The notes under the pieces were generated by a model. It had not been told where the DNA came from. It made no database searches and saw only the letters and a program-made list of their open reading frames with translations. A DNA stretch of 64,000 nucleotides, taken from the NCBI RefSeq assembly GCF_044792175.1, contig NZ_CP172866.1. One strand, 5' to 3'. Positions 13,927 through 52,200 of the stretch are shown here, one piece after another; positions within the stretch are counted from its first letter, which is position 1; every line of letters begins with the position of its first letter. A program made the position numbers and the translations under genes. This DNA comes from Corallococcus coralloides (lineage in GTDB: Bacteria; Myxococcota; Myxococcia; Myxococcales; Myxococcaceae).

Positions 13927-15105
13927 ATGCCTGAGCCGTCTGCCCCCCTCGCGGGCCTGCGGGTGTTGGACCTGTCACGCCTGCTGCCCGGCCCGTACGC
14001 GACGCTGGTGCTCGCGGACCTGGGCGCCACCGTGGACACGGTGGAGGACCCGGACGTGGGGGACGCCACCCGCCACATGCCGCCGCACCGTGACGGAGAG
14101 GGCGCGCTCTACTACGGGCTGCACCGCAACAAGCGCTCGCTCGCGCTGAACCTCAAGACGCCCGAGGGGCGTGACGCGCTCCTGCGCCTCGTGGCCCGCT
14201 ACGACGTGCTGGTGGAGAGCTTCCGCCCCGGCGTCATGGACAAGCTGGGCGTGGGCGAGGCGGTGCTGCGCCAGAAGAACCCGCGGCTCATCTACTGCGC
14301 CATCTCAGGCTACGGCCAGACGGGGCCGGACCGGCTCAAGGCGGGGCACGACCTCAACTACGTGGCCCGCGCGGGCCTGCTGGGCTACGGCGGCGAAGCC
14401 GGCGGCGCGCCCGCGTTCCCGGGCGTGCAGATGGCGGACATCGGCGGGGGCAGCCTCTTCGCGCTGGTGGGCATCCTGGCCGCGCTGCACGAGCGCCAGC
14501 GCACCGGCGTGGGCCGCTTCGTGGACGTGTCCATGACGGACGGCGCGCTCGCCTTCCTCCACCTGCACCTGGCCTCGCGCCTGTTCATGGGGCAGGAGGG
14601 CACGCCGCTCCAGCGAGGGAGCGAGCCGCTCAACGGCGGCTACCCCAGCTATGGCCTGTACCGCACCGCGGACGACCGCTGGCTCGCGGTGGGCGCGCTG
14701 GAGCCCAAGTTCTTCGGCGCACTCTGCGCGAAGCTGAGCCGCCCGGAGCTGCTGGATGACGCGTACTCAGGGGGCGAGGACGGCGCGCGCGTGAAGGCGG
14801 AGCTCGCCCGCATCCTCGCGAGCCAGCCCCTTGCGCACTGGCGCGAGCAGCTCTCCGGCCCGGAGTTCTGCGTGGAGCCGGTGGCGGAGGGCGACGAGGT
14901 GCTCGCGGATCCGCAACTGCGCGCGCGCGGCCTCTTCGTGGACGCGGACGATGCGCAGCGCGGCATCCGCGTGACACACCTGCTCACGCCGCTGCGCATG
15001 GGCGACGTCGCACTGCGTCCACCGCCCACGCTGGGACAGCACTCACGCGTCATCCTGGAAGACGCGGGTTTCACGGCCGAGGAAATCTCGCGCCTGCTTG
15101 CATGA
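13927..15105 (+). CDS. family III CoA-transferase (CaiB/BaiF; alpha-methylacyl-CoA racemase-like)
   Basis: LRVLDLSRLLPGPYATLVLADLGA N-terminus, a conserved Asp region, and about 392 aa in length. Confidence 0.8.
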   Translation: MPEPSAPLAGLRVLDLSRLLPGPYATLVLADLGATVDTVEDPDVGDATRHMPPHRDGEGALYYGLHRNKRSLALNLKTPEGRDALLRLVARYDVLVESFRPGVMDKLGVGEAVLRQKNPRLIYCAISGYGQTGPDRLKAGHDLNYVARAGLLGYGGEAGGAPAFPGVQMADIGGGSLFALVGILAALHERQRTGVGRFVDVSMTDGALAFLHLHLASRLFMGQEGTPLQRGSEPLNGGYPSYGLYRTADDRWLAVGALEPKFFGALCAKLSRPELLDDAYSGGEDGARVKAELARILASQPLAHWREQLSGPEFCVEPVAEGDEVLADPQLRARGLFVDADDAQRGIRVTHLLTPLRMGDVALRPPPTLGQHSRVILEDAGFTAEEISRLLA

Positions 15106-15169
15106 ACAACGCGTGAAACGAACCCAGGAGGGCGGGTTCGCACGCGGATCCAAAGTGACCCGTTGCTGA

Positions 15170-15232
15170 TTGACAGCTCCGGGGCCACAGTTAGATCTTT
15201 CCTGTTTTCTGACTGGAAAATCGACTTTCAAG
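15170..15232 (+). promoter_or_regulatory. candidate sigma-70-like promoter plus imperfect palindromic operator upstream of the ACP operon
   Basis: TTGACA (15170-15175), a 17-nt spacer, then TAGATC (15193-15198). Imperfect inverted repeat CTGGAAAATCGACTTTCAAG (15213-15232). The intergenic region is AT-richer than its surroundings. Confidence 0.35.
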
Positions 15233-15253
15233 CCCTGGGAAGGAAGGTCCCCC

Positions 15254-15550
15254 GTGCCCGACGCGCAGGAGCTCGAGTCATACATCCGCCGGAAGTTCGC
15301 AGAAAACGTGGGTCTCACGGAGGAGGAGTTGTTCGCCGAGGATCTCTCGCTCGCGGCGCTGATCACGCGCTCCGAGCGCATGACCAACAGCGTGGACCTG
15401 ATGGAGGCCTTTGCCCGCACGTCCAACGGGCTGCGCAAGGATTTTGGACTGCGGGTCCGCCTGCCGGCACTGTCCCTGGATACACCGGTGTCGCAGGTCC
15501 TGGCGGTCTTCATGGGTGAAGTCACGAACCCGGAGCGGAAGTCGGCATGA
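15254..15550 (+). CDS. stand-alone acyl carrier protein-like (ACP/PCP fold)
   Basis: 98 aa. GTG start behind GGAAGGAAGG. Carrier-protein core LSLAALITRSERMTNSVDLMEAF, with a Ser in an ADSLD-like context. Overlaps the next gene (ATGA). Confidence 0.6.
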   Translation: MPDAQELESYIRRKFAENVGLTEEELFAEDLSLAALITRSERMTNSVDLMEAFARTSNGLRKDFGLRVRLPALSLDTPVSQVLAVFMGEVTNPERKSA

Positions 15551-16506
15551 GCGTCCTGGCGCGCAGCCTCGAACACGAAGAAGCGACCGGCGTCCCCTCC
15601 AAGGCTCCTCCGGGCGAAGGCCGCCCGGCCATCCTGGCGGAGCTGTACGAAGCGCTCACCCAGCGGGGCATGTCGCTGGTGGACGTCACCTGGGAGCAGC
15701 AGCGCCTGCACGAGTCGCGGCGCTGGAGCGTGGTGGAGATGCTCTCCCACGTGGACTCCACACAGGTGGGTGAAGCCGACCGGCACCTGGTGTGGAACGC
15801 GGGGCGGGCGGAGCTGACGACGAAGCCGGGCGCGGACCGGCTGGAGCGGCTGGCGGACGGAGAGTGCCGCCGGTGGCAGGAGAAGAACCCCACCGTCGCC
15901 GCCATCATGCAGGCGTGCGGCACGTGGAGCCGCTACTGGAACGAGGAGGAGGCGCACCACGAGACGGCGTTCAACCGCCTGTCCTCGGTGCTGAAGCTGG
16001 AGCCCGTCAGCGACGCCACCTTCATCGAGTTCCGCAAGGTCTTCCCCGACGACGACATGCTGCGCACGCTCACGCTGCTGGCCATCTCCGAGGTGGTGGC
16101 GGCGGTGGACTACGGCCAGTGCTCGCAGAGGGTCCAGGACCCGGGCCTGCGCGCGCTGTTCAAGCAGGTGGCCGCGGACGAAGTGCAGCACATGAACTAC
16201 TTCATCGCCTTCGCCAAGGCGCTGGTGGACAGCGGCGCCTACAAGGCCAAGGAGGCGTTCGCGGTGGCGCACCTGTTCCTGCGCGACGGCGGCGAGGTGC
16301 ACGGCAGCAAGCGCGAGCGCGTGGAGAGCCGCGACACCCACGTCAACTGGTGGGATCAGTTGGAGCACCGCGAGGGCTTCTACGCGCCGGACGCGCTGCG
16401 CAAGAAGGAGCAGCTCATCTTCCACGCCCTCAAGCGCATCACCGGCATCACGGTGGCGTCGCGCGAGGAGGTGGAGGACACCTGGATGGACCTCGTCGGG
16501 TGCTGA
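15547..16506 (+). CDS. ferritin-like di-iron carboxylate enzyme (acyl-ACP desaturase / AurF-like oxygenase superfamily)
   Basis: 319 aa with two E-x-x-H motifs, WNEEEAHHETAF and ADEVQHMNYFIAF, plus additional conserved Glu (ISEVVAAVDYG). Soluble, no TM segments. Confidence 0.55.
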   Translation: MSVLARSLEHEEATGVPSKAPPGEGRPAILAELYEALTQRGMSLVDVTWEQQRLHESRRWSVVEMLSHVDSTQVGEADRHLVWNAGRAELTTKPGADRLERLADGECRRWQEKNPTVAAIMQACGTWSRYWNEEEAHHETAFNRLSSVLKLEPVSDATFIEFRKVFPDDDMLRTLTLLAISEVVAAVDYGQCSQRVQDPGLRALFKQVAADEVQHMNYFIAFAKALVDSGAYKAKEAFAVAHLFLRDGGEVHGSKRERVESRDTHVNWWDQLEHREGFYAPDALRKKEQLIFHALKRITGITVASREEVEDTWMDLVGC

Positions 16507-16871
16507 TGGGCCTGGGCCACGACCTCCAGGCCATCTCGGAGCTGGAGGCCGCGCGGGCCCTGCGGGAGCCGGACGTCTTCTTCACCGCCGCGGAGCTCGC
16601 CCACTTCGAGCGCGCGGCGGATCCGCTGCAGAGCCTGGCGGCGGGCTTCAGCGCGAAGGAGGCCCTCTTCAAGGCGCTGCCCGCGGTCGCCGGCTGGTTC
16701 TGGACGGACGCGGAGCTCGTCCACGACGCCCGGCACGCGCCGCGCTTCCGGTTTCACGGCACGCTCGCGGCGCACCTGGCGCGCGAGGCCCTGCAGGTCG
16801 CTGTCTCGCTGTCACATAGCGGAGGGTTCGTCTCGACGGTGGTCATCGTGACGCGCGCTCCGTCTCCCTGA
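16506..16871 (+). CDS. holo-ACP synthase (AcpS-type 4'-phosphopantetheinyl transferase), operon-dedicated copy
   Basis: 121 aa with MGLGHDLQAISE... and FSAKEALFKAL motifs. The ATG overlaps the previous stop by 1 nt. Confidence 0.7.
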   Translation: MGLGHDLQAISELEAARALREPDVFFTAAELAHFERAADPLQSLAAGFSAKEALFKALPAVAGWFWTDAELVHDARHAPRFRFHGTLAAHLAREALQVAVSLSHSGGFVSTVVIVTRAPSP

Positions 16872-16910
16872 AGTCGCTGTCCCCCCCGGCAGCCAGAAGG
16901 ACATCCCCCC

Positions 16911-17357
16911 GTGCACTTCGAAGAGTCGTCCCTGACGCTGCGCGTGCGCCCCAACGACCTGGACACCCTGGGGCACGTGAACAACGCCACCACGCTGGAG
17001 TACCTGGAGGCCGGCCGTTGGGCCTGGCTGGAGCGGCAGGGGCTGACGCGCGGGGGGACGGTGGTGGCCGTGGTGTCGCGCGTGGAGGTGGACTACCGCC
17101 GCGAGATTCCCCCGGGCGACGTGGTGGTGCACACGGAGCTGGAGTCACCCGCGGCGGACGAGCTGGAGGAGGACGGCCTCAACTACCGCGCGCGCTTCCG
17201 GCAGCGCGTGTTCCTGGCGGCGGACGGGCCGGTGGCGGTGGAGGCGCTGGTGAGCGTGGCCTTCCTGAACGCGCGGGAGCGGTCGCTCGCGTCGCTGCAG
17301 CAGTTCCTGGCCGCCGCGCGCGCCCCGGCGGCCCCCGTGGAGGATCCGCGCCCATGA
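16911..17357 (+). CDS. hotdog-fold acyl-CoA/ACP thioesterase (4HBT/YbgC-like)
   Basis: 148 aa containing LDTLGHVNNATTLEYLEAGRWAWL. GTG start. Confidence 0.7.
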   Translation: MHFEESSLTLRVRPNDLDTLGHVNNATTLEYLEAGRWAWLERQGLTRGGTVVAVVSRVEVDYRREIPPGDVVVHTELESPAADELEEDGLNYRARFRQRVFLAADGPVAVEALVSVAFLNARERSLASLQQFLAAARAPAAPVEDPRP

Positions 17358-18271
17358 GCACGAACGCGAAGCCGGAGCTCGCGTCCCTGGAGTTCTGGGT
17401 GCCCACGTCCCAGGAGCACGCGCTGCACGTCGTGGAGGCGCGCCTGTCCGGGACACGGGACTCCGCGCCCGGCGTGCTCTTCGTGCCGGGGCTGTTCTCC
17501 GACGGCCGCTTCTTCCTGGGCGCGCAGGGTGACGGGGCCGCGCGCACGTTCGTGGACGCGGGCTGCGTGGCCTACGTCGCGTCCCTGCGCGGGCACGGCA
17601 AGAGCCGCTGGCCCGCGAAGCGCGCGTACGACTGGAGCTTCGACACGTACGTGCGCCACGACATCCCGGACCTGGTGCGGGCCGTGCGCGCGCGGCACAC
17701 CGGGCCGCTGTTCCTGCTGGCCCACAGCATGGCGGGCTACGCGGCGCTGGCGGCCCTGGGGGTGGACCCCTCGCTCCAGGCCGCGGTGTCTGGCGTGTGC
17801 ACGCTGTCCTCGGCGGTGAACGACTACAGCGACGGCGGGTTCAAGAAGCGCTTCCAACTGGGCTTCTCGGCCGCGCTGGCGGGGCTGCTGGGGCGCTTCC
17901 CGGCGAAGGCGCTGAAGCAGGGGCCCTGGGACGAACCGGCGGGCGTGATGCGGCAGTTCACGGACTGGGCGCCCACGGGCGCGTTCCGCAGCGCGGACGG
18001 CGCGACGAACTACTGGAGCGCGCTGCGCGACGTGACGCTGCCGGTGTTCGCGGGCGTGGGCGCGGCGGACCTGTTCCATGCGTCACCGATGCGCGTGGAG
18101 AAGCTGGTGGCCCACCTGGGCGGCACCCGCAAGGAGCTGGCCGTGCTGGGGCGCGCGCAGGGGCTGAGCTGGGACGCGGGCCACTTCGACGTGGTGCGCG
18201 GAGAGCGCGCCCGCGCGGAGGTGCTGCCCCGTGTGCTCGCGTGGATGCGCCAGGTGGCGCCCGCGCACTGA
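17354..18271 (+). CDS. alpha/beta-fold hydrolase
   Basis: 305 aa with nucleophile elbow AHSMAGY (GxSxG) and a GHGKS motif. The start overlaps the previous stop (ATGA). Confidence 0.7.
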   Translation: MSTNAKPELASLEFWVPTSQEHALHVVEARLSGTRDSAPGVLFVPGLFSDGRFFLGAQGDGAARTFVDAGCVAYVASLRGHGKSRWPAKRAYDWSFDTYVRHDIPDLVRAVRARHTGPLFLLAHSMAGYAALAALGVDPSLQAAVSGVCTLSSAVNDYSDGGFKKRFQLGFSAALAGLLGRFPAKALKQGPWDEPAGVMRQFTDWAPTGAFRSADGATNYWSALRDVTLPVFAGVGAADLFHASPMRVEKLVAHLGGTRKELAVLGRAQGLSWDAGHFDVVRGERARAEVLPRVLAWMRQVAPAH

Positions 18272-18296
18272 AGAACCCGGAGGGGAGGCTTTTCAC

Positions 18297-20048
18297 ATGC
18301 TCGACATCATCCAGCGGTTGGAGGCGGTGGACCCGCGGCGCGGCCTGTTTCTCTACGACGACTTCGTCGGGCCGCCGGAGTTCGTGCCCTACCGGGAGTT
18401 CGCCTCCCGGGTGGCCGGGGCGGCGGAGCACTTCCGCGCGCGCGGCGTGGCGCCGGGCACGCGCGTGGTGCTGCCCTTCGAGACCTCCTCGTCCGTCATC
18501 TTCGCCTTCCTGGCGCTGATGGAGCTGGGCGCGGTGCCCCTGTCCGTGAAGCCGTACATCCTGAGCACGCCGAAGGGGCCCTACCGGGAGTTCCTCGGGC
18601 GCATCCGCGAGCGCTACGGCGCGCAGCTCGTGCTGGACGTGTCCAGCCTGGCCGGCCTGGAGCTGCCCCTGGAGCGCCTGCCGCCGCCGCCCGCGGGCGC
18701 GAAGCGTCCGGGAGCGAAGCTGCGCGAGGTGGCGCCGGAGGAGCTGGCGTTCGTGCAGTTCTCGTCGGGGTCCACGTCGTTCCCCAAGGGCGTGCCCATC
18801 ACCCACGAGAACCTGGCCGCGAACCTGCGGATGATCATCCGGCACGACGGCCGCACGGCCGAGGACCGGGTGACGAGCTGGCTGCCGCTCTACCACGACA
18901 TGGGGCTCATCGGCGGGCTGCTCACCTGCATCACGGTGGGCAATGACCTGCTGCTGTCCCAGCCCGCGTCGTTCCTGATGGACCCGCTGGGCTGGCTGGA
19001 GCTCATCTCCTCCGAGAAGGTGATGGGCTCCGTCATCCCCAACTTCGCCATCGACTACGCGCTCAAGTCGCTCAAGTCGGCGGACGCGGAAGATTTGAAG
19101 CGGCTGGACCTGTCGCGCGTGCAGAGCATCTACCTGGGCAGCGAGCCCATCAACATCCCCAACCTGGAGCAGTTCCTGGAGATCCTCGCCCCGTGCGGCC
19201 TGCGGCGCGACGTGTTCATGCCCTGCTACGGCATGGCGGAGACGGTGCTGATGGTCGCGAGCGTGCCGCCGCGCCAGACGGTGCGCGTCATCACCGCGCC
19301 CAACGGCCAGCCGGCCATCTCCGTGGGCCGCCCGCTGACGGAGTTCGAGGTGCGGCTGCGCGCCGAGGACGGCCGGCCGTGCGGCGAGGGCGAGATGGGG
19401 GAAATCGAGCTGCGCGGCGGCAGCCTGGCGCCGTCGTACTTCCTGGATGACCGGCCCCTGCGCGGCGAGGACGGCTTCTACGCCACGGGCGACCTGGGCT
19501 TCCTGAAGGAGGGCGAGCTCTTCATCACCGGGCGCATCAACGACCGCATCAAGGTGAACGGCCAGAGCTTCTTCTCCGCGGACTTCGAGCAGGCCGTGGA
19601 GCGGCTGGCCTTCATCCGCCCGGGGCGCACCGCCGTCATCCAGGTGAAGGGGCGCCTCGTGGTGCTGGCGGAGGTGAACCACCCGTCCGCGCTGGAGCGC
19701 CTGGAGGCCAGCCGCAAGCAGGTCTGTCAGTCGGTGCTGGAGACGGTGGGCGTGACGCTCGCGCAGGAGGACGTCCTCTTCATCCGCTACGGCCAGCTCC
19801 AGAAGACGAGCAGCGGCAAGCTCCAGCGCCGCGCCATCACGGAGGCCTACGAGCAGGGCCGCATCCGCACCGTGACGCCCATGGAGCTGAGGGCGGACCT
19901 GCTCCAGATGCGCGCGCAGCGGCTCGTGCTGGGCTCCGTGATGGTCGCGCGGCAGCGGGGCCGGCGGTGGATGGCCTCCGGGAAGGCGGCGCTCACCGCG
20001 GGCCTCCAGCGGCTCAAGCCTGGGGGCCGGCGTCAGGACGGGCCCTGA
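18297..20048 (+). CDS. fatty acyl-AMP ligase (FAAL) / acyl-ACP synthetase-like adenylating enzyme
   Basis: 583 aa with AMP-binding motifs FSSGSTSFPKGV and YGMAETVL. ATG behind GGAGGGGAGG. The FAAL assignment (rather than CoA ligase) is inferred from the co-operonic ACP and PPTase. Confidence 0.65.
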   Translation: MLDIIQRLEAVDPRRGLFLYDDFVGPPEFVPYREFASRVAGAAEHFRARGVAPGTRVVLPFETSSSVIFAFLALMELGAVPLSVKPYILSTPKGPYREFLGRIRERYGAQLVLDVSSLAGLELPLERLPPPPAGAKRPGAKLREVAPEELAFVQFSSGSTSFPKGVPITHENLAANLRMIIRHDGRTAEDRVTSWLPLYHDMGLIGGLLTCITVGNDLLLSQPASFLMDPLGWLELISSEKVMGSVIPNFAIDYALKSLKSADAEDLKRLDLSRVQSIYLGSEPINIPNLEQFLEILAPCGLRRDVFMPCYGMAETVLMVASVPPRQTVRVITAPNGQPAISVGRPLTEFEVRLRAEDGRPCGEGEMGEIELRGGSLAPSYFLDDRPLRGEDGFYATGDLGFLKEGELFITGRINDRIKVNGQSFFSADFEQAVERLAFIRPGRTAVIQVKGRLVVLAEVNHPSALERLEASRKQVCQSVLETVGVTLAQEDVLFIRYGQLQKTSSGKLQRRAITEAYEQGRIRTVTPMELRADLLQMRAQRLVLGSVMVARQRGRRWMASGKAALTAGLQRLKPGGRRQDGP

Positions 20049-20057
20049 GCCCGGGGC

Positions 20058-21161
20058 TCAACGGGCCTTCGTGGAGGCCCACAGGTCCCACCCGCGCGCC
20101 GCGTGGCACGCATCGCCCACCAGGTCCAGGGCGAGCTGGGGCTGCGTCCTGGCCAGCGCCTCCGTGTCGCGGAAGGCGCCCGTGGCCTCCAGCCTCAGCG
20201 TGGCGTGCTCCAGCGCGGCCTTCGCCTCCGCCACCGCCCGGGCCTGCGCGGGCGTGGGCTTCCAGCCCGTCTCGTCCCGGTAGCGCCCCAGCGCCTCCAG
20301 GAAGTGGCCGTGGAACTTCACCATCTGCACCAGCACCGGGACGCGGTACGCGGGCGCGGCGGTGAGGGCGGCCTCGTACTGCTTCGCCTCCGAGCCCTGC
20401 CGGTACACCAGCACGTCCACCTGCGCGTCCAGCCGCGCGCCCCAGGCCTTGCGCACGGCGGGGAAGCGCGCCCAGCCCGCGACGGCCTGGAAGAAGTGGA
20501 GCCCTCCACACGGGTGCGCGTAGATGCCCTGCCTGTTCTTGGGCACCTGGGGGAGGCCCGCCTTCATGCCCCGCATCAGCTCCGCGTTCGCGGACTCCAG
20601 CGTGGCGAGCGCGGCGTCCATCACCGCGTCCATGCGCACCGTCTCACCCGCGCCGTTGACGAACGCGCCCCCGGGCTCCAGCACGTGGGACAGCGCGTCC
20701 AGCGCCCACGCTCCGTCCGGCGAGGTGGCGAGCGCGGGGCGGAAGTCGTGCTGGAGCGACGCCACCAGCTCCCGCAGCGTCACCTTTCCCCACGCGGTGG
20801 GGAACGCCTGCGAGCGCGGGTAGCCCGCGAGCAGGAACGTCTTCACCTGGAGCGCCGGGTGGGGCTCCACGGGCGTGCCGTCCGGGGTGAAGGCGTCGAA
20901 GAAGTAGCGGGCCGCGCCCCCCGCGTCGGGGGCGTCCCGGCGCAGGAACCCCGCGACGATGGCGTCCGAGGCCGGGCGGCCGTCCCGCGCGCGGAACGCC
21001 TTCCCGTCCAGGTCCATGCCGTGCGCGAGCGCCCAGGGCCTGGAGGGATCCGCCGCGTGCGCGCGGCACTGCGTATGGAGCACCGCGGGCGCGGAAGGAG
21101 GGGAGGGCGGGGGCGCGGCGCTCAGGCCGAGCCCGAGCAGGGCCACGAAGGAGGGGAGCAT
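20058..21161 (-). CDS. secreted hypothetical protein
   Basis: Signal peptide MLPSFVALLGLGLSAAPPPS; no motif I recognised. Convergent with the FAAL gene. Confidence 0.5.
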   Translation of the reverse strand: MLPSFVALLGLGLSAAPPPSPPSAPAVLHTQCRAHAADPSRPWALAHGMDLDGKAFRARDGRPASDAIVAGFLRRDAPDAGGAARYFFDAFTPDGTPVEPHPALQVKTFLLAGYPRSQAFPTAWGKVTLRELVASLQHDFRPALATSPDGAWALDALSHVLEPGGAFVNGAGETVRMDAVMDAALATLESANAELMRGMKAGLPQVPKNRQGIYAHPCGGLHFFQAVAGWARFPAVRKAWGARLDAQVDVLVYRQGSEAKQYEAALTAAPAYRVPVLVQMVKFHGHFLEALGRYRDETGWKPTPAQARAVAEAKAALEHATLRLEATGAFRDTEALARTQPQLALDLVGDACHAARGWDLWASTKAR

Positions 21162-21213
21162 GGGCGCGGGCAGTGTCGCAGCCCGCGCCCGTCCACGCAC
21201 CTGGGAGCCGTCC

Positions 21214-29058: not shown

Positions 29059-32000
29059 ATGGCTTCTCCACCACGCTCGCGTCCCGCCGCCGTCGTCCTG
29101 TGTCTGCTGTCCCTCGCGCTGTCCTCCGTGTCCGTGGCCGCCCCCGCGAAGGGGCCCCCGACGTGGAAGGCCATCGACGCGCTCGTCGAGGACGACAAGG
29201 TGGAGTCCGCCGCGCAGGGGGCCGAGGCCCGGCTCGCCGCGGCGAAGGCCCAGGGTGACGCCGACGAGTGGACGCGCGCGCTGGTGCGCACGGTGCAACT
29301 GCGCACGCGGCTGCATGGCTATGAGACGACGGTGCGCTTCCTGCGTGAACAGCCCTGGCCGGAGGGGCTGCGGCAGCAGGCCACGCTCCACCTGTTCTAC
29401 GCGGCGGTGCTCGCGAACTACCAGCAGTCGTACAGCTATGAGATTGGCCAGCGCGAGCAGGTGGTGTCCTCCGGGCCGGTGGACCTGAAGGCGTGGACGA
29501 AGGATCAGATTTCAGCGGAGATCCAGCGCACCTACGCCGCCGTCTGGGAGTCGCGGCAGAAGTTCGGCACGGAGCCCGTGAAGGGGCTGTCCGAGTACAT
29601 CCAGCCCAACACCTATCCGGACGGCATCCGGTCCACGGTGCGCGACGCGGTGACGTACCTGTGGGTGGACTCGCTGGACGACACGGACCTGTGGCGCCCG
29701 GAGCAGGAGCAGGGCGTGTACCGGCTGGACCTGGGCGCGCTGCTGGAGGGCACGCCGAAGGTGGAGCTGAAGGACCCGTCCGTGCATCCGCTGCTGAAGG
29801 TGGCGGCGGTGCTGGGGGACCTGGAGGCGTGGCACCTGGCGGCGGGCCGGCGCGAGGCGGCGCTGGAGGCGCGGCTGCGGCGCTACGCGGCGATGGAGGC
29901 GTCGTTCACCGAGGCCGCGGACAAGCGGCGCATCCGTGAGCACCTGGCCGCGCACCTGAAGGGCTTCCGGGACGTGCCGTGGTGGTCCAAGGGGCAGTTC
30001 GAGCTGGCGGCGCTGGAGCAGCAGGCGGGCCGCGCCATCACCGCGCATGCCCTGGCGAAGGCGGGCGCGGAGGCGTGGCCGAAGTCGGTGGGCGGCATGC
30101 AGTGCGCGGCGCTGGTGGGGAGCCTGGAGGCGCCGGAGCTGTACGCGACCGGGATGCAGGTGGACGGGCCGGGCAAGCGCTCCATCCTGGTGGGCCACCG
30201 CAACGTGGGCGCGGTGTACTTCCGGGCGTACGCGCTGGACGTGGAGGCGCGGCTCGCGAAGCCCGACGAGGACCTGTCGCTGTTCCCCTCCACCGCGGAG
30301 ATGCTGCGCATGGTGGCGTCTCGCAAGCCGGACGCCGCGTGGAGCACGGCGCTGCCGCCCACGCCGGACTTCCAGCGGCACCAGACGTTCGTGACCCCGC
30401 CCGCGCTCAAGCCGGGCGCATACGTCATCGCCCTGTCCACGCGCGAGGACTTCGCGAAGAAGAACAGCCGGATCCTCTCCCTGCCGATGTCCGTGTCGCC
30501 CTGGGCGGTGACGGTGCGCAAGGCGAACCCCAACCAGGCGGAGGTCCACGTGGTGGACGGGGCCACGGGGGCGGGCGCCGCGAACGTGGAGGTGCGGCTG
30601 GTGACGTCGGACTACCGCACCCGCCGCTTCGGGGTCACCAGCCGCCGCACGGACGCGAACGGCGACCTGCTGGTCACGGGCTCGGACGCCAACCGCTACG
30701 AGGACATGCAGTTGGTGGTGGGCCGGGGCAAGGGCGTGATGGTGGTCCCGGGGTCGATGTACCTGTCCTCCGCCCATGAGCCGTCCCTGGATGACCAGAC
30801 GCTCATCTACACGGACCGCGCCGTCTACCGTCCCATGCAGAAGCTGCTGTGGAAGGTGGTGGCCTACCGTCCGGAGGTGGCGTCCAAGCGCTACCGCGTC
30901 CTGCCGGACTCGCCGGTGACGGTGACGCTCGTGGACCCCAACGGCCAGGAGGTGTCCAAGCGCGAGGCCCGCACCAACACGTTCGGGTCGGTGGCGGGTG
31001 AGTTCGACATCCCCTCGGGGCGGCCGCTGGGCCAGTGGACGGTGCGCACCCGCCCCAACGGCTACGCGAACGTGCGAGTGGAGGAGTACAAGCGGCCCAC
31101 CTTCGAGGTGACGCTGAAGGACGCGCCGGAGGCCCTGCGGCTCAACCGGCGCGCGACGTTCAAGGGCGAGGCCCGCTACTACTTCGGCCTGCCGGTGACG
31201 CGCGGCGCGGTGAAGTGGCGCGTGTCGCGCGAGCCGGTGCTGCCGCGCTGGTGGTTCTGGGAGCGCATCCCGGCCACCACGGACCTGGTGGCCTCCGGGA
31301 CGGCCACGGTGGGGGAGGACGGCGGCTTCACCGTGGCGTTCACCCCGGAAGCGGACGAGCGGCTCGCGAAGGCGCAGGGCATGTCGTGGCGCTACCGCGT
31401 GGAGGCGGACCTGACGGACGAGGGCGGTGAGACGCGCTCCGCGAGCCGCGCCTTCCGCCTGGGCTTCGTGTCGGTGGAGGGCCGCGTGGACTCCGACGTG
31501 GGCTTCGTCCGCGAGGACTTCCCGTCGGAGGTGCGGCTCGTCCGCTCGAACCTGGATGGCGCGCCGCAGGCCGGACCGGGCCGCTGGCGGCTCATCGCCC
31601 TGAAGGCTCCGGGCCGTCCGCTGATGCCGTCGGAGGTCCCGGTGGACAGGCCCAAGCCCCTGGACGCGGACGCGCAGTCGCTCAAGGAGACCTCCCCCAC
31701 GCCGGGGGATTCGCTCAAGGCGCGCTGGGACACGAGCTACGACGTGGAGCAGACGCTGCAGCGCTGGGACGACGGCGCGGAGGTGGCGCAGGCTGCGGTG
31801 ACGCATGGCGCGGACGGGGTGGCCACCGTGAAGCTGCCGGCGCTGCGCGCGGGGGCGTACCGCCTGCGCTACGAGACGACGGATCCGTTCGGTCAGAAGG
31901 CCACCGCGCAGCGGGACTTCGTGGTGGCGGGAGCCCGGGCTCCGGCGGGGCTGCCCGCGGTGCTGGCGGCGGAGCGCGCCTCCGTGCGCGTGGGCGAGGT

Positions 32001-35000
32001 GGCCCGGCTGATGGTGGCCTCCGGCTTCGAGGGCCAGCCGCTGATGCTGGACGTGTACCAGGGGCGCCAGCGCGTCGAGCACCGTCAGTTGACGGCGGGG
32101 CAGGGGCGCGCGGTGGTGGAGCTGCCGGTGACGGAGTCCCTGCGCGGCGGCTTCACGGTGGTGCTCACGATGGTGCGCGACTGGCAGTCGCTGAGCTTCC
32201 AGCAGACGGTGGCCGTGCCCTTCGACGACAAGGAGCTGAGCCTGGAGTTCGCCACGTTCCGGGACACGCTGCGGCCCGGCGCGAAGGAGACCTTCCGCGT
32301 GACGGTGAAGGGGCCCCAGGGCGCGAAGCTGGAGGCGGGGGCCGCGGAGCTGCTCGCGTACATGTACGATCAGTCGCTGAACGTCTTCGGCCCGCACACG
32401 CCGCCGCAGGTGGCGCAGTTGTATCCGCAGCAGACCGTCTACGTGGACATCCGGGCGTCCGGTGGCGTCTTCGGCGCGGACTGGCTCTTCGACGAGCTGG
32501 TCCGGGACGGACCCGACGCGCCGGACCTCAGCGCCGACACGCTCAGGTTCGGGGAGGGCTACGGGCTGGGCGGTCCGGGCTACCGCAACTACTACGGCGG
32601 AGTGGGCCGCCGCATGCGCGCCACGGCCGCGAAGCCCGGGGGCATCCAGCCGGAGGCGGACGCCGCGCCGCCGCCTCCTCCGCCCGCGCCCGCGCCGTCC
32701 ATGGCCTCCGCGCCGAAGGAGGGCCGGGTGCTGGAGCAGAAGCGGCGTGAGATCATCCAGATCATCAAGGGGGCGCCCGGCGCACCGGAGCCGGGGGAAG
32801 GGTCGGAGGAGCCGCTGCGCTCGAACTTCGCGGAGACGGCGTTCTGGATTCCGCAAATGCTCACCGGGCCGGACGGGGCCGCGGTGCTGGAGTTCACGGT
32901 GCCGGACTCGGTGACGGCGTGGGACGTCTGGGTGCACGCGCTCACGCGGGATCTGCGCGGGGGCTCCACGCAGCGCGCCACCCGCAGCGTGAAGGAGCTG
33001 ATGGTGCGCCCCTACCTGCCGCGCTTCCTGCGCGAGGGTGACCGGGCGGAGCTGGAGGTCGTGGTGAACAACGCGGGGACCCAGCCGCAGCAGGGCCAGC
33101 TCACGCTCGACATCGTGGATCCGGACACGCAGAAGAGCCTGCTCGCGGACTTCGGCGTGAAGACGGCCTCTCAGGCCTTCACGGTGGCGGCGGGGAAGGG
33201 CACGCACCTGCGCTTCCCCATCACCACGCCCGCGCGGGTGGGGCCGGTGGCCTTCCGCGTGGTCGCGAAGACGGGCGCGTTCAGCGACGGCGAGCTGCGG
33301 CCCCTGCCGGTGCTGCCCGGCCGCATGCACCTGTCGCAGTCGCGCTTCGCCATGCTGAACAACCAGGACCGCCGGACGCTGACGTTCGAGGACCTGAAGA
33401 AGTCGGACGACCCCACCCGCGTGAACGAGCAGCTCGTCGTGACGGTGGACGCGCAGCTCTTCTACTCCGTGCTCCAGGCGCTGCCGTACCTGGTGGACTA
33501 CCCCTATGAGTGCACGGAGCAGACCCTCAACCGCTTCGTGTCCACGGGCATCGTCTCCAGCCTCTTCGACAAGTATCCGGCCGTGGCGAAGGTGGCCAAG
33601 GACCTGAGCCAGCGGACCACGCGCTTCGAGACCTTCGACGACGCGGACCCCAACCGGAAGATGGCGCTGGAGGAGACGCCCTGGCTCAACGAGGCGAAGG
33701 GCGGGACGGGCAACGACGAGGCGCTCCTGCGCGTGCTGGATCCGAAGGTGGCCCAGGCCCAGCGCATGTCGTCGCAGCAGAAGCTGCGCAAGGCGCAGAA
33801 CGCGGACGGCGGCTTCCCCTGGTGGCCGGGCGGCCCGTCGTCGCCGTACATGACGCTCTACATCCTGCACGGCCTGTCGCGCGCCATGGAGCACGGCGTG
33901 GAGGTGTCGCCCTCCATGACGGAGCCCGCGTGGGGCTACCTGGCGAAGCACTTCCGGGACGACTACGCGAACCGGCTGATGAAGAAGGACCTGGGCTGGG
34001 AGTTCCTCACGTTCCTCAACTTCGTGGCGTCGGCGTACCCGGACGCGCGCTACACGGGCGAGGCGCTCACGGCGGCCGAGCGGCAGCGGATGCTCGAGTT
34101 CTCCTTCAAGCACTGGAAGCAGCACTCGCCGTACCTCAAGGGGTACCTGGCGCTCACGCTGAACCGGTCGAAGCGCACGAAGGACGCGCAGAAGGTCTGG
34201 GACAGCGTGATGGACTCCGCGAAGACGTCACAGGACCTGGGCACGTACTGGGCGCCGGAGGACCGCGGCTGGCTCTGGTACAACGACTCCACGGAGACGC
34301 ACGCCTTCGCGCTGCGCACGCTGTCGGAGCTGCGCCCGAAGGACCCCCGCCGCGCGGGCCTGGTGCAGTACCTGCTGCTCGACAAGAAGGTGAACCACTG
34401 GAAGTCCACCCGCGCCACGGCGGAGGCGCTCTACGCGATGGTGAACTACATGGAGGCGGAGGGCTCGCTGGCCGCGCGCGAGGAGCTGAAGGTGACGGTG
34501 GGCTCCAAGGCGGTGGCCCTGAGCTTCTCGCCGGACGTGTACACGGGGAAGAAGAACCAGATCGTCGTCCCCGGTCCGGAGGTGAACGCGAGCACGGCGA
34601 CCACGGTGGTGGAGAAGACGACGCCGGGCTTCGCCATCGCGTCCGCCACGTGGCACTTCTCCACGGAGCAGCTCCCCAAGGAGGAGCGCGGCGACTTCTT
34701 CCAGGTGTCGCGCCGCTACTTCGTGCGCCTCCGCGAAGGCAACCAGACGCTGCTGCGCCCCCTGTCGGACGGCGCGAGGCTGCGGCCCGGCGACGAGGTG
34801 GAGGTGCAGTTGTCGCTGCGCACGAAGCACGCCGCGGAGTACGTGCACCTGAGGGACCCCCGCGCCGCGGGCCTGGAGCCGGAGAACGCGCAGTCCCGCC
34901 ACAAGTGGGACCTGGGCATCGTCTGGTACGAGGAGACGCGCGACTCGGGGACGAACTTCTTCTTCGAGTCGCTGCCGGCCGGTGAGTACACCTTCAAGTA

Positions 35001-35124
35001 CCGGCTGCGCGCGAACATGGCGGGGACGTTCCGCGTGGGCCCGGCGACGGTGCAGTCCGTGTACGCGCCGGAGTTCACCGCCTACTCCACGGGCGCGGTG
35101 CTCACCGTGGACAAGGCACAGTAG
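29059..35124 (+). CDS. bacterial alpha-2-macroglobulin family protein with thioester motif
   Basis: 2021 aa. Signal peptide. CTEQ thioester motif (VDYPYECTEQTLNRF). Multiple MG/Ig-like domains. Confidence 0.85.
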   Translation: MASPPRSRPAAVVLCLLSLALSSVSVAAPAKGPPTWKAIDALVEDDKVESAAQGAEARLAAAKAQGDADEWTRALVRTVQLRTRLHGYETTVRFLREQPWPEGLRQQATLHLFYAAVLANYQQSYSYEIGQREQVVSSGPVDLKAWTKDQISAEIQRTYAAVWESRQKFGTEPVKGLSEYIQPNTYPDGIRSTVRDAVTYLWVDSLDDTDLWRPEQEQGVYRLDLGALLEGTPKVELKDPSVHPLLKVAAVLGDLEAWHLAAGRREAALEARLRRYAAMEASFTEAADKRRIREHLAAHLKGFRDVPWWSKGQFELAALEQQAGRAITAHALAKAGAEAWPKSVGGMQCAALVGSLEAPELYATGMQVDGPGKRSILVGHRNVGAVYFRAYALDVEARLAKPDEDLSLFPSTAEMLRMVASRKPDAAWSTALPPTPDFQRHQTFVTPPALKPGAYVIALSTREDFAKKNSRILSLPMSVSPWAVTVRKANPNQAEVHVVDGATGAGAANVEVRLVTSDYRTRRFGVTSRRTDANGDLLVTGSDANRYEDMQLVVGRGKGVMVVPGSMYLSSAHEPSLDDQTLIYTDRAVYRPMQKLLWKVVAYRPEVASKRYRVLPDSPVTVTLVDPNGQEVSKREARTNTFGSVAGEFDIPSGRPLGQWTVRTRPNGYANVRVEEYKRPTFEVTLKDAPEALRLNRRATFKGEARYYFGLPVTRGAVKWRVSREPVLPRWWFWERIPATTDLVASGTATVGEDGGFTVAFTPEADERLAKAQGMSWRYRVEADLTDEGGETRSASRAFRLGFVSVEGRVDSDVGFVREDFPSEVRLVRSNLDGAPQAGPGRWRLIALKAPGRPLMPSEVPVDRPKPLDADAQSLKETSPTPGDSLKARWDTSYDVEQTLQRWDDGAEVAQAAVTHGADGVATVKLPALRAGAYRLRYETTDPFGQKATAQRDFVVAGARAPAGLPAVLAAERASVRVGEVARLMVASGFEGQPLMLDVYQGRQRVEHRQLTAGQGRAVVELPVTESLRGGFTVVLTMVRDWQSLSFQQTVAVPFDDKELSLEFATFRDTLRPGAKETFRVTVKGPQGAKLEAGAAELLAYMYDQSLNVFGPHTPPQVAQLYPQQTVYVDIRASGGVFGADWLFDELVRDGPDAPDLSADTLRFGEGYGLGGPGYRNYYGGVGRRMRATAAKPGGIQPEADAAPPPPPPAPAPSMASAPKEGRVLEQKRREIIQIIKGAPGAPEPGEGSEEPLRSNFAETAFWIPQMLTGPDGAAVLEFTVPDSVTAWDVWVHALTRDLRGGSTQRATRSVKELMVRPYLPRFLREGDRAELEVVVNNAGTQPQQGQLTLDIVDPDTQKSLLADFGVKTASQAFTVAAGKGTHLRFPITTPARVGPVAFRVVAKTGAFSDGELRPLPVLPGRMHLSQSRFAMLNNQDRRTLTFEDLKKSDDPTRVNEQLVVTVDAQLFYSVLQALPYLVDYPYECTEQTLNRFVSTGIVSSLFDKYPAVAKVAKDLSQRTTRFETFDDADPNRKMALEETPWLNEAKGGTGNDEALLRVLDPKVAQAQRMSSQQKLRKAQNADGGFPWWPGGPSSPYMTLYILHGLSRAMEHGVEVSPSMTEPAWGYLAKHFRDDYANRLMKKDLGWEFLTFLNFVASAYPDARYTGEALTAAERQRMLEFSFKHWKQHSPYLKGYLALTLNRSKRTKDAQKVWDSVMDSAKTSQDLGTYWAPEDRGWLWYNDSTETHAFALRTLSELRPKDPRRAGLVQYLLLDKKVNHWKSTRATAEALYAMVNYMEAEGSLAAREELKVTVGSKAVALSFSPDVYTGKKNQIVVPGPEVNASTATTVVEKTTPGFAIASATWHFSTEQLPKEERGDFFQVSRRYFVRLREGNQTLLRPLSDGARLRPGDEVEVQLSLRTKHAAEYVHLRDPRAAGLEPENAQSRHKWDLGIVWYEETRDSGTNFFFESLPAGEYTFKYRLRANMAGTFRVGPATVQSVYAPEFTAYSTGAVLTVDKAQ

Positions 35125-39309: not shown

Positions 39310-39500
39310 GAGTCCCCCGCCGAGCCGTGTGTCCAGCGTCCATTGAACCCTTAGAAGCCAGGTGGGGACCGAAATCATGTCACCGCAGGCTTCCCTCATC
39401 CCCGGTGAAGGGGGAGGGCTTGCACATGGCGACCGAAACGGACCCCGGAATGGACGTATCGGTTCGAATTTCTGCTGGGCATCACGCACCCCGCAGGGAA
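39310..39500 (-). ncRNA. candidate 6S RNA (ssrS) upstream of the ygfA-like gene
   Basis: 190-nt non-coding stretch with lower GC and several hairpins (for example CCCTCATCCCC-GGTGAA-GGGGGAGGG), directly upstream on the same strand as the MTHFS gene. The 5' and 3' ends are partly complementary. The ssrS-ygfA linkage is a known synteny. No coding ORF here is plausible. Confidence 0.3.
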
Positions 39501-39661
39501 CAGACCTTTTACCACTCAAATCGTGCTGCAAGTCCTTAGAATTACTGGGAAAATCCCAGGGCGTTCTGGGAAAATGATAAGGATGGAGAAGCGTGCGGTC
39601 AAGCCGTCCTCGCGCGTTTACAAGCCGCCCCGTGGACTTCTATGATGCCCGGGTCCCCGAC

Positions 39662-49290: not shown

Positions 49291-52200
49291 CTACTTGTCG
49301 AGCTCGTCGACGAGCGCCGTCCAGTCGTCCTCACCGGCTTCGGGGGCGGTGGGCAACTGCATCACCATGGTGCGCTCCGGGGCCTCCTCGTCCACGGGGA
49401 CGGGGGTGGGCGCCGCCTTCTTCGCGGCCGGCTTTGCGGCGGCCTTGGCCGGAGGCTTGGCGGCTGCCGGGATGACCGGGTTGGCCTGGACGGTGGCGGC
49501 CAGGTGCTCGTCCTCGGGGGCCTTGGCGCCGGCCTTCGCGGCGGGGGCGGCGGCCGCGGCGGGGGCCTTGGTCTTGTAGCGGGCCAGCTCCAGCTCGGCG
49601 ACCTTGAGCGCCTTGCTCTTCTCCTGGACGGACGTCTGGAGGCGGGCGACCTCCTGGGCCTTGATGGCCTCGCGGCGCTCGAGCTCCGCCTTCTGCTTGG
49701 CGTTGAGGTCCTCCAGCTCCTTGGCCTGACGGGCCTCCAGGTCCTTGCGCTCCTTCTGCGCCGTGGCGAGCCTGGCGGCCGCCTCGTTGGCCTTGGTCTC
49801 CGCCGCGGCGACGCGGGCGTTGAGGTCCTTCTCCGCGCGGGCGCGGGTGCTCTGGGCGTTCTCCAGCGCCAGCTCCAGGTCCTGGGCCTTCTTGGTGCGG
49901 GCCTGCAACTGGGCCTGGGCGTCCTTGAGCTTCGCCTCCGTGTCGGCGGCGAACTTCTGGGCCTCCTGGGCGAGCTGGGCGATGCGCTGCTCGGCCTTGG
50001 CGAGCTTCGCGGCCAGGTCGTCCGACTGCTTCTTCGCCTCGGCGGCGGCGGCCTGCGCCTGCTGGGCCTGCTGTTGGGCCTGGGCCTGGGCCTGCTGGAG
50101 CTGTCCGGCCAGCCCGTCGCGCTCGCTGGTGAGCTTCTTCTGCTGGTTCGCGGCCTGCTGGAGCTGTCCGTCGCGGTCCGCGATGGCCTTGCGCGCGCCG
50201 TCCAGCTCGCCGGAGACGTTGGAGAGCTGCTGGTGGAGCGCGTCCGCCTGCTTCTTCGCCTCGGCGGCCTGGTGCTCCAACTGGCCTTCCAGTTGCTTCA
50301 CCTGCTCCGTGCGGGTGGAGACCTCGCGGTTGAGCACCTCCGCCTGACGCATCTTCTCCTGCGTCACGTGCGTGAGCTTGCGGAGCGTGTCCGACAGCTC
50401 CTTGCCCTTGGTGTCGACCTCGTTCTGGAGGAGCTCCTCACGGCGCTGCGACTCGTGGGTGAGCGTCTGGAGGCGGTCCTCCAGGTGGTGCCGCGCGTCC
50501 TCCGTCTGCGCGAGCGTGGAGGACAGTTGCGTGACTTCCGACACGCGCGTGCCCAGCTCGTGCTTGGTGACGATGAGCTGCTCGGCCAGGTCCTCGCCGT
50601 TGGCCTGGGCCTCGGTGAGCTGGCGCGTGAGCTCCGCCTGGGCGCTGGCGGCGGCCTCGCGGGACTGCGCGTGGGCCTGCTCCTCGCGGGCGAGCGCGTC
50701 CTGGGTGCTGGCGAGCTGGCCCTGCGTGTCGGCCAACTGCCGCGAGGTGGCGTTCAGCTCCGCGAACAGGTTGTCGCGCTCGCCGGTGAGGGCGTTGATG
50801 CGCGCGGTGGTCTCCTCCGCGAGCGCCGCGTGGGCGGTGCGCTCCGCGTCGTAGAGCCCCTGCGTCTCGGACAGGTCCGCGCGCAACTGGCCAATCTGGC
50901 CGGTGAGGTCCTGCTCCAGCGCGTCCTTCGCCGTGTTGAGCGCCGCCAGCTCCGCGATGCGCGCGTCGCGCTCCTCGGTGGTGCGGGCGAGGAGGCCGTT
51001 GGTCTCCTGGAGGATGTCGCGCGTCTCGTTGAGCTCCGCGTCCAACTCGTCGCGGTGCGAGGTGACCTTCGCCAGGTCGGCGCGCGTCGACTCCAGGGTC
51101 TCCTGGGTCTGCGTCAGCGTCTGGCTGGTGGCCTCCAGCTCGCCGCGCGTCTCCGCGAGCGTGCCCTCGGTGCTGGAGAGCGTCGCCTGCGTCTCGGAGA
51201 GCGTGGCCTCCGTGCGCGCCAGCGTGTCCTGCGTCTGCGCGAGGGTGGATTCGGTGGTGGCCAGCGTCTGGCTGGTGGCCTCCAGCTCGCCCTGGGTGGA
51301 CGCGAGCGTCCCTTCCGTCTGCGCGAGCCTGGCCTGCGTGTCCGTCAGCGTCTGGCTGGTGGCCTCCAGCTCGCCGCGCGTCTCCGCGAGCGTGCCCTCC
51401 GTGCTGGTGAGCGTGGCCTGCGTGTCGGAGAGGCTCTGGCTGGTGGCCTCCAGCTCACCGCGCGTGGTGGAGAGCGTCTCCTCCGTCTGCGCGAGCTTGG
51501 ACTGGGTGTCCGCCAGGGTCTGGCTGGTGGCCTCCAGCTCGCCGCGCGTCTCCGCGAGCGTGCCCTCGGTGCTGGAGAGCGTCGCCTGCGTCTCGGAGAG
51601 CGTGGCCTCCGTGCGCGCCAGCGTGTCCTGCGTCTGGGCGAGCGTGGACTCGGTGGTGGCCAGCGTCTGGCTGGTGGCCTCCAGCTCGCCGCGCGTGGTG
51701 GAGAGCGTCTCCTCCGTCTGCGCCAGGCGCGTCTGCGTCTCGGAGAGCTGCTGGCTGGTGGCCTCCAGCTCGCCGCGCGTCTCGGAGAGGGTGGCCTCCG
51801 TGTTGGAGAGCGTGCCCTGCGTCTCGGAGAGCTGCTGGCTCGTCGCCTCCAGCTCGCCGCGCGTCTCCGCGAGCGTGGCCTCCGTGCCGGAGAGCGTGTT
51901 CTGCGTCTCGGAGAGCTGCTGGCTCGTGGCCTCCAGGTTGCCGGTCAGCTCGGCGATGCGGGCGTCGCGGTCGGAGACGTCGGTCTGCAGGCCCTCGATG
52001 GTGCCGTCGCGCTGGGTGACGGTGTCCTCGAGCGAGGCCACGCGCGCGGAGAGCTGCTCGCCCTGGCGCTGGGACGCGTCGAGCTGCTCGGTGAGCGCTT
52101 GAATCTGGCCGTTGAGGTCCGCCTCCAGGGCGTCCTTCGCCGCGCGCAGGTCCTCCAACTGGCTGGTGAGGTCCTGCTCCAGCGCGTCCTTGGCCTGCTG

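Follow-up and report, generated by a model that had tools for sequence, protein, structure and literature searches.

Known systems and the Corallococcus cassette

In the JamA/JamB/JamC system and in the polyyne cassettes, a stand-alone adenylating enzyme loads a fatty acid onto a dedicated acyl carrier protein (ACP), and an O2-dependent di-iron desaturation takes place on the tethered chain (PMC11837247; PMC9828172). In the CylA/CylB/CylC trio of the cylindrocyclophane-type pathways, the fatty acyl-AMP ligase (FAAL) and a free-standing ACP are accompanied by a soluble enzyme of the dimetal-carboxylate type, which introduces a function at an unactivated carbon of the acyl-ACP (PMC8406957). In this study, we analysed a compact six-gene cassette at positions 15254 to 20048 (+ strand) of a 64,000-nucleotide stretch of DNA from Corallococcus coralloides (contig NZ_CP172866.1 of RefSeq assembly GCF_044792175.1), which in its full length we call the window. 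The six genes are predicted to encode, in this order, a divergent stand-alone carrier protein, a soluble di-iron oxidase, an AcpS-type 4'-phosphopantetheinyl transferase (PPTase), a hotdog-fold thioesterase, an alpha/beta-fold hydrolase and a FAAL-like adenylating enzyme. We consider it moderately likely that they form a self-contained and horizontally mobile cassette, in which an acyl chain is tailored on a private carrier and is then released.

An earlier note on this DNA, made from its letters alone, had likened the locus to the Jam-type cassettes, apart from their membrane desaturase, and both halves of that comparison are borne out. The logic of the systems matches, and the polyyne systems also free their product by a thioesterase, as we predict for the window cassette. 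However, the desaturases of the Jam and polyyne systems are integral-membrane histidine-box enzymes (PF00487) and their ACPs are canonical, and Jam also feeds a polyketide synthase (PKS) and a nonribosomal peptide synthetase (NRPS), whereas the window cassette has a soluble four-helix-bundle oxidase, a highly divergent carrier, a built-in PPTase and neither a PKS nor an NRPS. No PF00487 membrane desaturase is encoded in the window cassette, and one is found nearby only in the Nostoc locus described below. The same note had reported no PKS or NRPS in the vicinity, and indeed none occurs anywhere in the 64-kb window.

CylC resembles the window oxidase in being only distantly similar to desaturases (PMC8406957), a likeness that we draw from the published description. 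Its homologues are mainly cyanobacterial and lie in PKS-containing clusters, whereas the window cassette stands alone and adds an AcpS and a hotdog thioesterase. The plant and mycobacterial soluble acyl-ACP desaturases (PF03405; castor delta-9, DesA1/DesA2) share with the window enzyme the twice-repeated E...ExxH pattern and, as predicted here, the fold class and an ACP-tethered substrate. They differ from it in sequence and structure (12-17% identity, a TM-score of about 0.48 and a family score below gathering), and they act on the housekeeping ACP of fatty-acid synthesis, whereas the window enzyme would act on a private, ligase-loaded carrier. The isonitrile-lipopeptide core (ScoB-E / Rv0097-Rv0100) also brings together an ACP, an insertion-less FAAL (FadD10), a hotdog protein and an iron oxidase around a tethered short or medium acyl chain; its oxidase is an Fe/2-oxoglutarate enzyme, its hotdog protein adds glycine and an NRPS finishes the pathway. 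The PDB matches of the window thioesterase include no Rv0098-like protein. Acyl-ACP-desaturase-like proteins do occur in other bacterial clusters, as BolL of the bolagladin cluster illustrates, for which a role has been proposed but is unproven.

The full-text literature that we searched, whose coverage leaves out most subscription journals, contains no characterised equivalent of the cassette, CylC and BolL being the nearest items in it, and to that extent the view that no operon of the same composition has been characterised still holds. The cassette logic, that of FAAL/ACP/oxidase tailoring, is familiar and not a new principle, and the cassette includes two orphan protein families.

Organisation of the locus

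The window has about 70% G+C, and six open reading frames (ORFs) lie on the + strand between 15254 and 20048. A base-by-base check of the junctions shows an ATGA overlap between the carrier and di-iron genes at 15547, a TGATG with an overlap of one base between the di-iron and AcpS genes at 16506, and a further ATGA overlap between the thioesterase and hydrolase genes at 17354. The two other junctions are gaps of 39 nt, from the end of AcpS (16871) to the GTG of the thioesterase gene (16911), and of 22 nt, from the end of the hydrolase gene (18271) to the ATG of the ligase gene (18294). Both of these non-overlapping starts have a purine-rich run upstream that resembles a ribosome-binding site. 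The ORFs, overlaps and gaps of 22-39 nt verify the earlier description of six coupled genes on one strand with short gaps. The translational coupling, together with the synteny across phyla, argues for co-transcription of the six genes.

The boundaries of the unit need some correction. The six-gene block stands as it had been drawn, but its first gene, that of the carrier, most likely starts at GTG 15254 and not near 15106 or 15170. This GTG lies 3' of GGAAGGAAGG, and the aligned position is an ATG in other Corallococcus species. The loci nearest to the window cassette are those of Corallococcus species, with protein identities of 90-96%.

The intergenic region upstream of the cassette measures 148 nt. 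Right behind the stop codon of the CoA-transferase gene, a hairpin (CGAACCC, an 8-nt loop and GGGTTCG) can be read from the sequence at 15119-15140 (+). The hairpin that the earlier note had placed after this gene is thus present, though it lacks a T-tract, is conserved only in part among Corallococcus species and went uncalled in the intrinsic terminator scan. Its role at the left edge of the cassette may be that of a terminator or an insulator. Farther downstream, an AT-richer leader (15150-15253) contains the hexamer TTGACA at 15170-15175 (+), which nine loci of Corallococcus and Citreicoccus share without change while the flanking bases diverge, and which is likely to be the -35 box of a promoter belonging to the cassette. 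The AT-richer promoter region proposed before is found as far as base composition and this putative box are concerned, but a sigma-70 promoter scan of the leader called no full consensus. An Rfam search of the whole window returned no riboswitch or leader match in the 148-nt region. Boundary repeats and insertion scars, sought around 15000-20200, gave chance matches in GC-rich coding sequence only.

Distribution, probable transfer and autonomy

We surveyed one genome per species (185,579 species) and scored the occupancy of each locus by tblastn with the six proteins, at a coverage of at least 75%. The survey gave 66 cassette loci, to which a separate copy in Nostoc is added, and the hosts belong to at least five bacterial phyla. 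In Myxococcota, they are Corallococcus, Citreicoccus, Hyalangium, Nannocystaceae, and Sorangium and Polyangiaceae metagenome-assembled genomes (MAGs). In Actinomycetota, the cassette is found in Streptomyces, Kitasatospora, Frankia, Catellatospora, Saccharothrix, Solwaraspora and Actinocrinis. Pyrinomonadaceae, Gallionellaceae and Thiohalocapsa contribute a single locus each, so that Acidobacteriota and Pseudomonadota are represented as well.

The carrier is present in 65 of the 66 loci, the thioesterase in 61 and the ligase in 59, while AcpS is found in 46 and the hydrolase in 37, the latter being missing, for example, from many Kitasatospora and Frankia loci. Some of the shortfalls in this count are contig ends. 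The core of the cassette is formed by the carrier, the di-iron protein, the thioesterase and the ligase, and AcpS and the hydrolase are optional. The order of the genes is kept as carrier, di-iron protein, (AcpS), thioesterase, (hydrolase) and ligase, except that the ligase gene lies upstream in three deep-branching loci. The phylogenetic profile of the synteny thus recovers, in 66 species genomes of several phyla, the order that had been noted in a single genome, and because the order recurs in this way the arrangement is far beyond chance.

Between Corallococcus and Streptomyces, the oxidases are about 70% identical and the remaining parts 60-75%, which exceeds the 59% identity of Corallococcus to another Myxococcaceae genome. 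In a crude neighbour-joining tree, the Actinomycetota form one clade that is sister to a clade of Myxococcaceae, Archangiaceae and Nannocystaceae, and the deeper branches are Polyangiaceae, acidobacterial and proteobacterial. Judged from these identities and this branching pattern, a transfer of the cassette between phyla is indicated.

Mobility markers lie near two of the cassettes. One is that of Solwaraspora, with transposases. The other is the cyanobacterial copy in Nostoc sp. WHI (locus L075, 3978-11652, WBKM01000065.1), which keeps the gene order and has a phage-type integrase upstream and a transposase fragment downstream. In this Nostoc locus, the cassette is followed by a 289-aa ORF without a Pfam match and then by a membrane fatty-acid desaturase (FA_desaturase, PF00487), which is two genes past the ligase.

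A site without the cassette was found in Myxococcus stipitatus DSM 14675 (L077, CP004025.1, 8001-10299). The neighbourhood of the window cassette (13927-21200) is syntenic in this genome, and the six genes are missing: the CoA-transferase gene abuts, and slightly overlaps, a conserved hypothetical gene of about 380 aa. The neighbours shared by the two genomes are genes for a FAD oxidase, a sigma factor, a TPR protein, an acyl-CoA synthetase, TatA, a histidine kinase, a response regulator, SCP2, the CoA-transferase, the hypothetical protein of about 380 aa, MarR, RND, MFP and an acyl-CoA dehydrogenase. Because M. stipitatus keeps this neighbourhood without exactly these six genes, the block is gained or lost as one autonomous unit. 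We also considered SCP2, the CoA-transferase, MarR and RND as possible parts of the cassette and rejected them, since their synteny is limited to Myxococcaceae and M. stipitatus has them without the cassette. The hypothetical gene occupies 20058-21200 (-) in the window and is convergent with the cassette, the two stop codons being 9 nt apart; its 380-aa product has no Pfam or NCBIfam match and is conserved in Myxococcaceae and Archangiaceae.

The flanks of the actinomycete cassettes are of a different kind. A major facilitator superfamily (MFS) transporter adjoins the cassette in all three annotated actinomycete loci, MFS-like ORFs lie upstream in 21 actinobacterial loci, and in some Streptomyces a cytochrome P450 gene is found beside the cassette. 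Streptomyces sp. ME19-01-6 (L073, 1-9586) has both the MFS and the P450 gene directly upstream on the same strand; farther upstream is a second, divergent small cluster, which comprises genes for an AMP-binding enzyme, ThiS, two acyl-CoA-dehydrogenase-like proteins and a PP-binding ACP. In Kitasatospora sp. NBC_01266 (L002, 3822-5039), a bacterial nitric-oxide synthase gene lies about 3 kb upstream of the cassette, and a 277-aa ORF without a Pfam match and an MFS transporter gene lie in between. In the myxobacterial lineage, a Nannocystaceae MAG (L003, 2662-6331 and 12724-16489) has radical-SAM genes on both flanks of the cassette, with an HxsD-family gene in one flank and a radical-SAM/methyltransferase fusion in the other.

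Predicted functions of the encoded proteins

The first gene (15254-15550, +) encodes a protein of 98 aa in which Ser46 is the predicted phosphopantetheine attachment site. We found 100 homologues, a few of which are named 'Carrier domain-containing protein' in UniRef. The motif N45-S46-V-D-L-M-E-A-F-A is invariant; it resembles the D-S-L-D motif of ACPs, of the (D/G)-x-D-S-L type, and has an Asn before Ser46 where Asp is usual. The AlphaFold2 model (pLDDT 87) shows the four-helix fold of carriers in a small bundle of helices, and the long helix formed by residues 46-64 (helix II) begins with Ser46. The ORF that had been called ACP-like has an invariant serine where helix II of the predicted carrier fold begins, and we predict it to be a carrier by its modelled fold and its motif, not by a hidden Markov model (HMM).

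The second gene (15547-16506, +) encodes the proposed tailoring enzyme, a predicted soluble di-iron (dimetal-carboxylate) oxidase of 319 aa. Its top PDB match by sequence is DesA2 of Mycobacterium tuberculosis (E 5e-3), aligned over the second half. For the AlphaFold2 model (pLDDT 84), the best Foldseek matches are the acyl-ACP desaturases of castor, ivy and Thunbergia (probability 1.0, E ~1e-3, TM ~0.48), followed by R2lox, DesA2 and the R2 subunit of ribonucleotide reductase; R2lox and the R2 subunit score nearly the same as the desaturases. Two E...ExxH ligand sets (E89, E135-x-x-H138, E182 and E212-x-x-H215) are invariant in 66 of 66 sequences, and the family has 79 invariant positions in total, the six ligands and 73 more. 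We rejected the reading as a non-enzymatic ferritin or rubrerythrin, since the rubrerythrin match falls short of its threshold and is confined to the ExxH helices, and ferritins are missing from the top folds. The desaturase fold matches and the six invariant ligands agree with the earlier assignment of this ferritin-like protein as an enzyme.

A profile search of 1.84 billion representatives gave only 42 matches to the di-iron protein and about four full-length clusters. The remote relatives are FA_desaturase_2 proteins only, some of them fused to a ferredoxin domain, and one (P0240) matches AurF weakly. For a few actinobacterial homologues, a match to PF03405 is precomputed in databases, and it is weak where it is graded. 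An exact-sequence database lookup of the window's di-iron protein returned no record. From sequence comparison and the model, we describe the family as small and isolated, under very strong constraint and bordering on the soluble desaturases.

The dedicated AcpS-type PPTase (16506-16871, +; 121 aa) matches the Pfam family ACPS (PF01648, E 1.4e-10) and TIGR00556 with a score of 46.4, above the cut-off of 45.35. Its top PDB match is AcpS of Streptomyces coelicolor (2jbz), and D6, E52 and K56 are invariant. The thioesterase (16911-17357, +; 148 aa) is YbgC/FadM-like and matches 4HBT_2 (PF13279, E 8.6e-16); in the PDB it matches hotdog thioesterases, among them YbaW/FadM of E. coli (1njk), and the motif D16-x-D18-x-x-G-H-V-N is invariant. 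This Pfam match and the conserved catalytic residues support the hotdog thioesterase assignment as it was first made. The hydrolase (17354-18271, +; 305 aa) matches Hydrolase_4 (E 4e-11) and also Abhydrolase_1, and H124-S125-M-x-G128, D239 and H277 are invariant in 38 sequences. For AcpS and the hydrolase, the assignments of the earlier note stand by their domain matches and invariant residues, but the occupancy of the 66 loci makes both of them accessory. The hydrolase may be an editing or releasing esterase, or an acyltransferase.

The last gene (18294-20048, +) encodes the adenylating enzyme, which has 584 aa, an AMP-binding domain (Pfam, E 1e-49) and a DIP2-like C-terminal domain. Its best NCBIfam models are those of FAALs and long-chain ligases, and every one of them scores below its cut-off (for the FAAL model PRK09192, 260.9 bits against 600). 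The best PDB matches are FAALs (7r7e, 3pbk, 3kxw, FadD23/32), and the closest relatives are ACP-loading enzymes (FAAL domains, McyG). Motifs A3, A5, A7, A8 and A10 and residue K509 are invariant. An insertion of about 20 aa is a defining feature of FAALs (PMC11837247). The window ligase is about 17-18 aa shorter than 7r7e and 3pbk exactly at the site of this insertion, and the spacing from YGMAE to TGDLG is a uniform 80-82 aa in 59 of 59 cassette homologues. The notion of a FAAL-like loader is kept, with FAALs as nearest relatives and the core motifs in place, but the FAAL-specific insertion is missing. The enzyme is FAAL-like and not a canonical FAAL, and we infer that it transfers the acyl group to a carrier and not to CoA, as the adjoining carrier and PPTase would predict.

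A parallel cassette in Pseudomonas

A Pseudomonas metagenome contig (L076, 7001-11245) encodes a di-iron protein, a 4HBT protein, a canonical PF00550 ACP, a DIP2-like AMP-binding enzyme and a 4HBT_2 protein. The di-iron protein (P0265 = WP_175554134.1, 393 aa) is 26% identical to the window oxidase with all ligand motifs aligned, and the ligase is 29% identical to that of the window. The set of functions is the same and the di-iron proteins are distantly homologous; unlike the window cassette, however, the Pseudomonas cassette encodes a canonical ACP and two hotdog proteins, and it is without an AcpS and an alpha/beta hydrolase. The Pseudomonas di-iron protein is longer (393 aa against 319), as is the insertion region of the ligase, and the cassette is apparently uncharacterised. 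Immediately upstream of it is a further 4HBT_2 gene, and an ABC transporter is encoded downstream. By analogy, this cassette independently supports the module logic and the carrier assignment, since a canonical PF00550 ACP appears in it.

Proposed pathway and alternatives

We propose the following pathway, in which the parts are as described above, and the substrate, its chemistry, the direction in which the steps run, the donor of electrons, export and the fate of the product are predictions. The cassette AcpS would turn the 98-aa carrier into its holo form at Ser46, and the FAAL-like enzyme would adenylate a free carboxylic acid and load it onto the carrier thiol instead of CoA. This acid would most likely be a medium- or long-chain fatty acid, because FAALs and desaturases are the neighbours of the two enzymes in sequence and structure searches, and because a membrane desaturase lies in the Nostoc locus. 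The di-iron enzyme would use O2 and a reductant from outside the cassette, probably a ferredoxin of the host, to oxidise an unactivated C-H of the tethered chain; we take desaturation as the default guess, and hydroxylation or another di-iron outcome is equally compatible with the data. The YbgC-type hotdog thioesterase would then cleave the thioester and free the product. Where it is encoded, the hydrolase might edit mis-loaded carrier or hand the acyl group to another acceptor, and in actinomycetes the adjoining MFS transporter probably exports the product.

Several observations weigh against this pathway. For the carrier, there is no match among the Pfam and NCBIfam HMMs, PP-binding (PF00550) included, none in the PDB by sequence or by profile, and none by hhalign to E. 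coli AcpP or to the Pseudomonas ACP, and the Foldseek E-values of its model are weak. The di-iron protein scores 18.2 bits against FA_desaturase_2 (PF03405), under the gathering cut-off of 22.7, and its TM-score to the desaturases is just ~0.48; for these two reasons it is not a strict member of FA_desaturase_2, and its predicted chemistry is uncommitted. The cassette contains no gene for a ferredoxin or a reductase, and about 30% of the loci are without AcpS. Hotdog proteins can also work as dehydratases or as adduct-forming enzymes. In the insertion region, the ligase aligns gap-free to McyG, an enzyme that activates and loads phenylpropanoids. Because of this alignment and the missing FAAL insertion, a non-fatty substrate of the ligase is possible.

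Such a substrate is the basis of an alternative that we regard as unlikely, in which the architecture is the same but the acid put on the carrier would be an aryl, phenylpropanoid or amino acid or some other small one, to be hydroxylated, epoxidised or N-oxygenated. The ligase features just given are in line with it, as are the weak AurF match of the remote relative P0240 and the P450 inserted beside the cassette in some Streptomyces. The oxidation would resemble that of CoA thioesters by PaaA or BoxB, or that by the AurF/CmlI-type N-oxygenases; however, AurF, PaaA and BoxB are not among the neighbours of the di-iron protein, which are acyl-ACP desaturases and the fatty-acid-binding R2lox. The best full-length matches of the ligase are long-chain FAALs, and a lipid substrate is also suggested by the membrane fatty-acid desaturase that lies beside the Nostoc cassette, two genes downstream of the ligase.

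We give a similarly small chance to primary lipid remodelling, in which free fatty acids would be re-activated on the carrier, desaturated aerobically and returned to the membrane, with the hydrolase as the acyltransferase. Every part is indeed a lipid-type enzyme, the bacteria that have the cassette are aerobic soil dwellers whose lipids are complex, and the Corallococcus cassette has no exporter of its own. However, the distribution is very patchy, with 66 of about 185,000 species genomes, absence from sister genera and transposases or an integrase near some loci, and therefore fits an accessory metabolism. The possible acyltransferase is an optional part, unlike the thioesterase that would release a free acid, which is universal, and the MFS transporters that adjoin three annotated actinomycete loci, with MFS-like ORFs upstream in 21, are also at odds with a return of the product to the membrane.

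Less likely again is a di-iron chemistry other than that of desaturases, such as CylC-like halogenation, oxidative decarboxylation to a terminal alkene, acetylenation or epoxidation, giving a halogenated or otherwise unusual lipid. It could be argued from the CylA/CylB/CylC trio, whose dimetal-carboxylate halogenase has low similarity to desaturases (PMC8406957), and from the isolation of the window family from true desaturases, with its 79 invariant positions in 66 sequences. Against this, there is no direct link to CylC, which was compared by its description in the literature only, and the CylC similarity network consists mostly of cyanobacteria with a few proteobacteria, actinobacteria never being mentioned (PMC8406957). 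Chance adjacency, or a decaying cassette whose genes do not act together, is strongly disfavoured and very improbable in view of the overlapping stop and start codons, the cross-phylum synteny, the conservation of all catalytic residues throughout the families and the gain or loss of the block as a whole.

Significance

If the self-contained tailoring cassette that we favour is real, a compact and portable unit of four to six genes makes one modified acid without a fatty-acid synthase, PKS or NRPS, and should be suited to heterologous expression. A soluble desaturase-like di-iron enzyme would then join the oxidases that act on carrier-tethered chains, and engineering is easier with soluble enzymes than with membrane desaturases such as those of Jam and the polyyne systems. 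The carrier would represent a subfamily that current HMMs miss, and mining for biosynthetic gene clusters based on PF00550 would overlook such cassettes. The oxidase identity of about 70% between Myxococcota and Actinomycetota suggests a single specific product under strong selection. As a lead for genome mining the cassette is a good one, and it is experimentally tractable.

A bolder proposal, to which we attach a low probability, is that the isolated di-iron family catalyses a transformation that is new for soluble desaturase-like enzymes, on a new class of carrier, and yields one specific small lipid, possibly a diffusible signal or allelochemical. In this view, the cassette has spread by horizontal transfer between bacteria with a complex development (myxobacteria, streptomycetes, Frankia, Nostoc), and Pseudomonas has a version that runs parallel to it.

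Other features of the window

Elsewhere in the window, the sole Rfam match is a full-length 6S / SsrS RNA (RF00013, 68.3 bits) at 39310-39502 (-). A gene at 29059-35124 (+) encodes a bacterial alpha-2-macroglobulin of 2021 aa with MG2, A2M, bait-region and bMG10 domains. Another, at 49291-53895 (-), encodes a protein of 1534 aa that begins with a response-regulator receiver domain at its N-terminus and has a long coiled-coil region like that of crescentin, and it coincides with a strongly negative AT skew of -0.36 to -0.47 over 49-53 kb.

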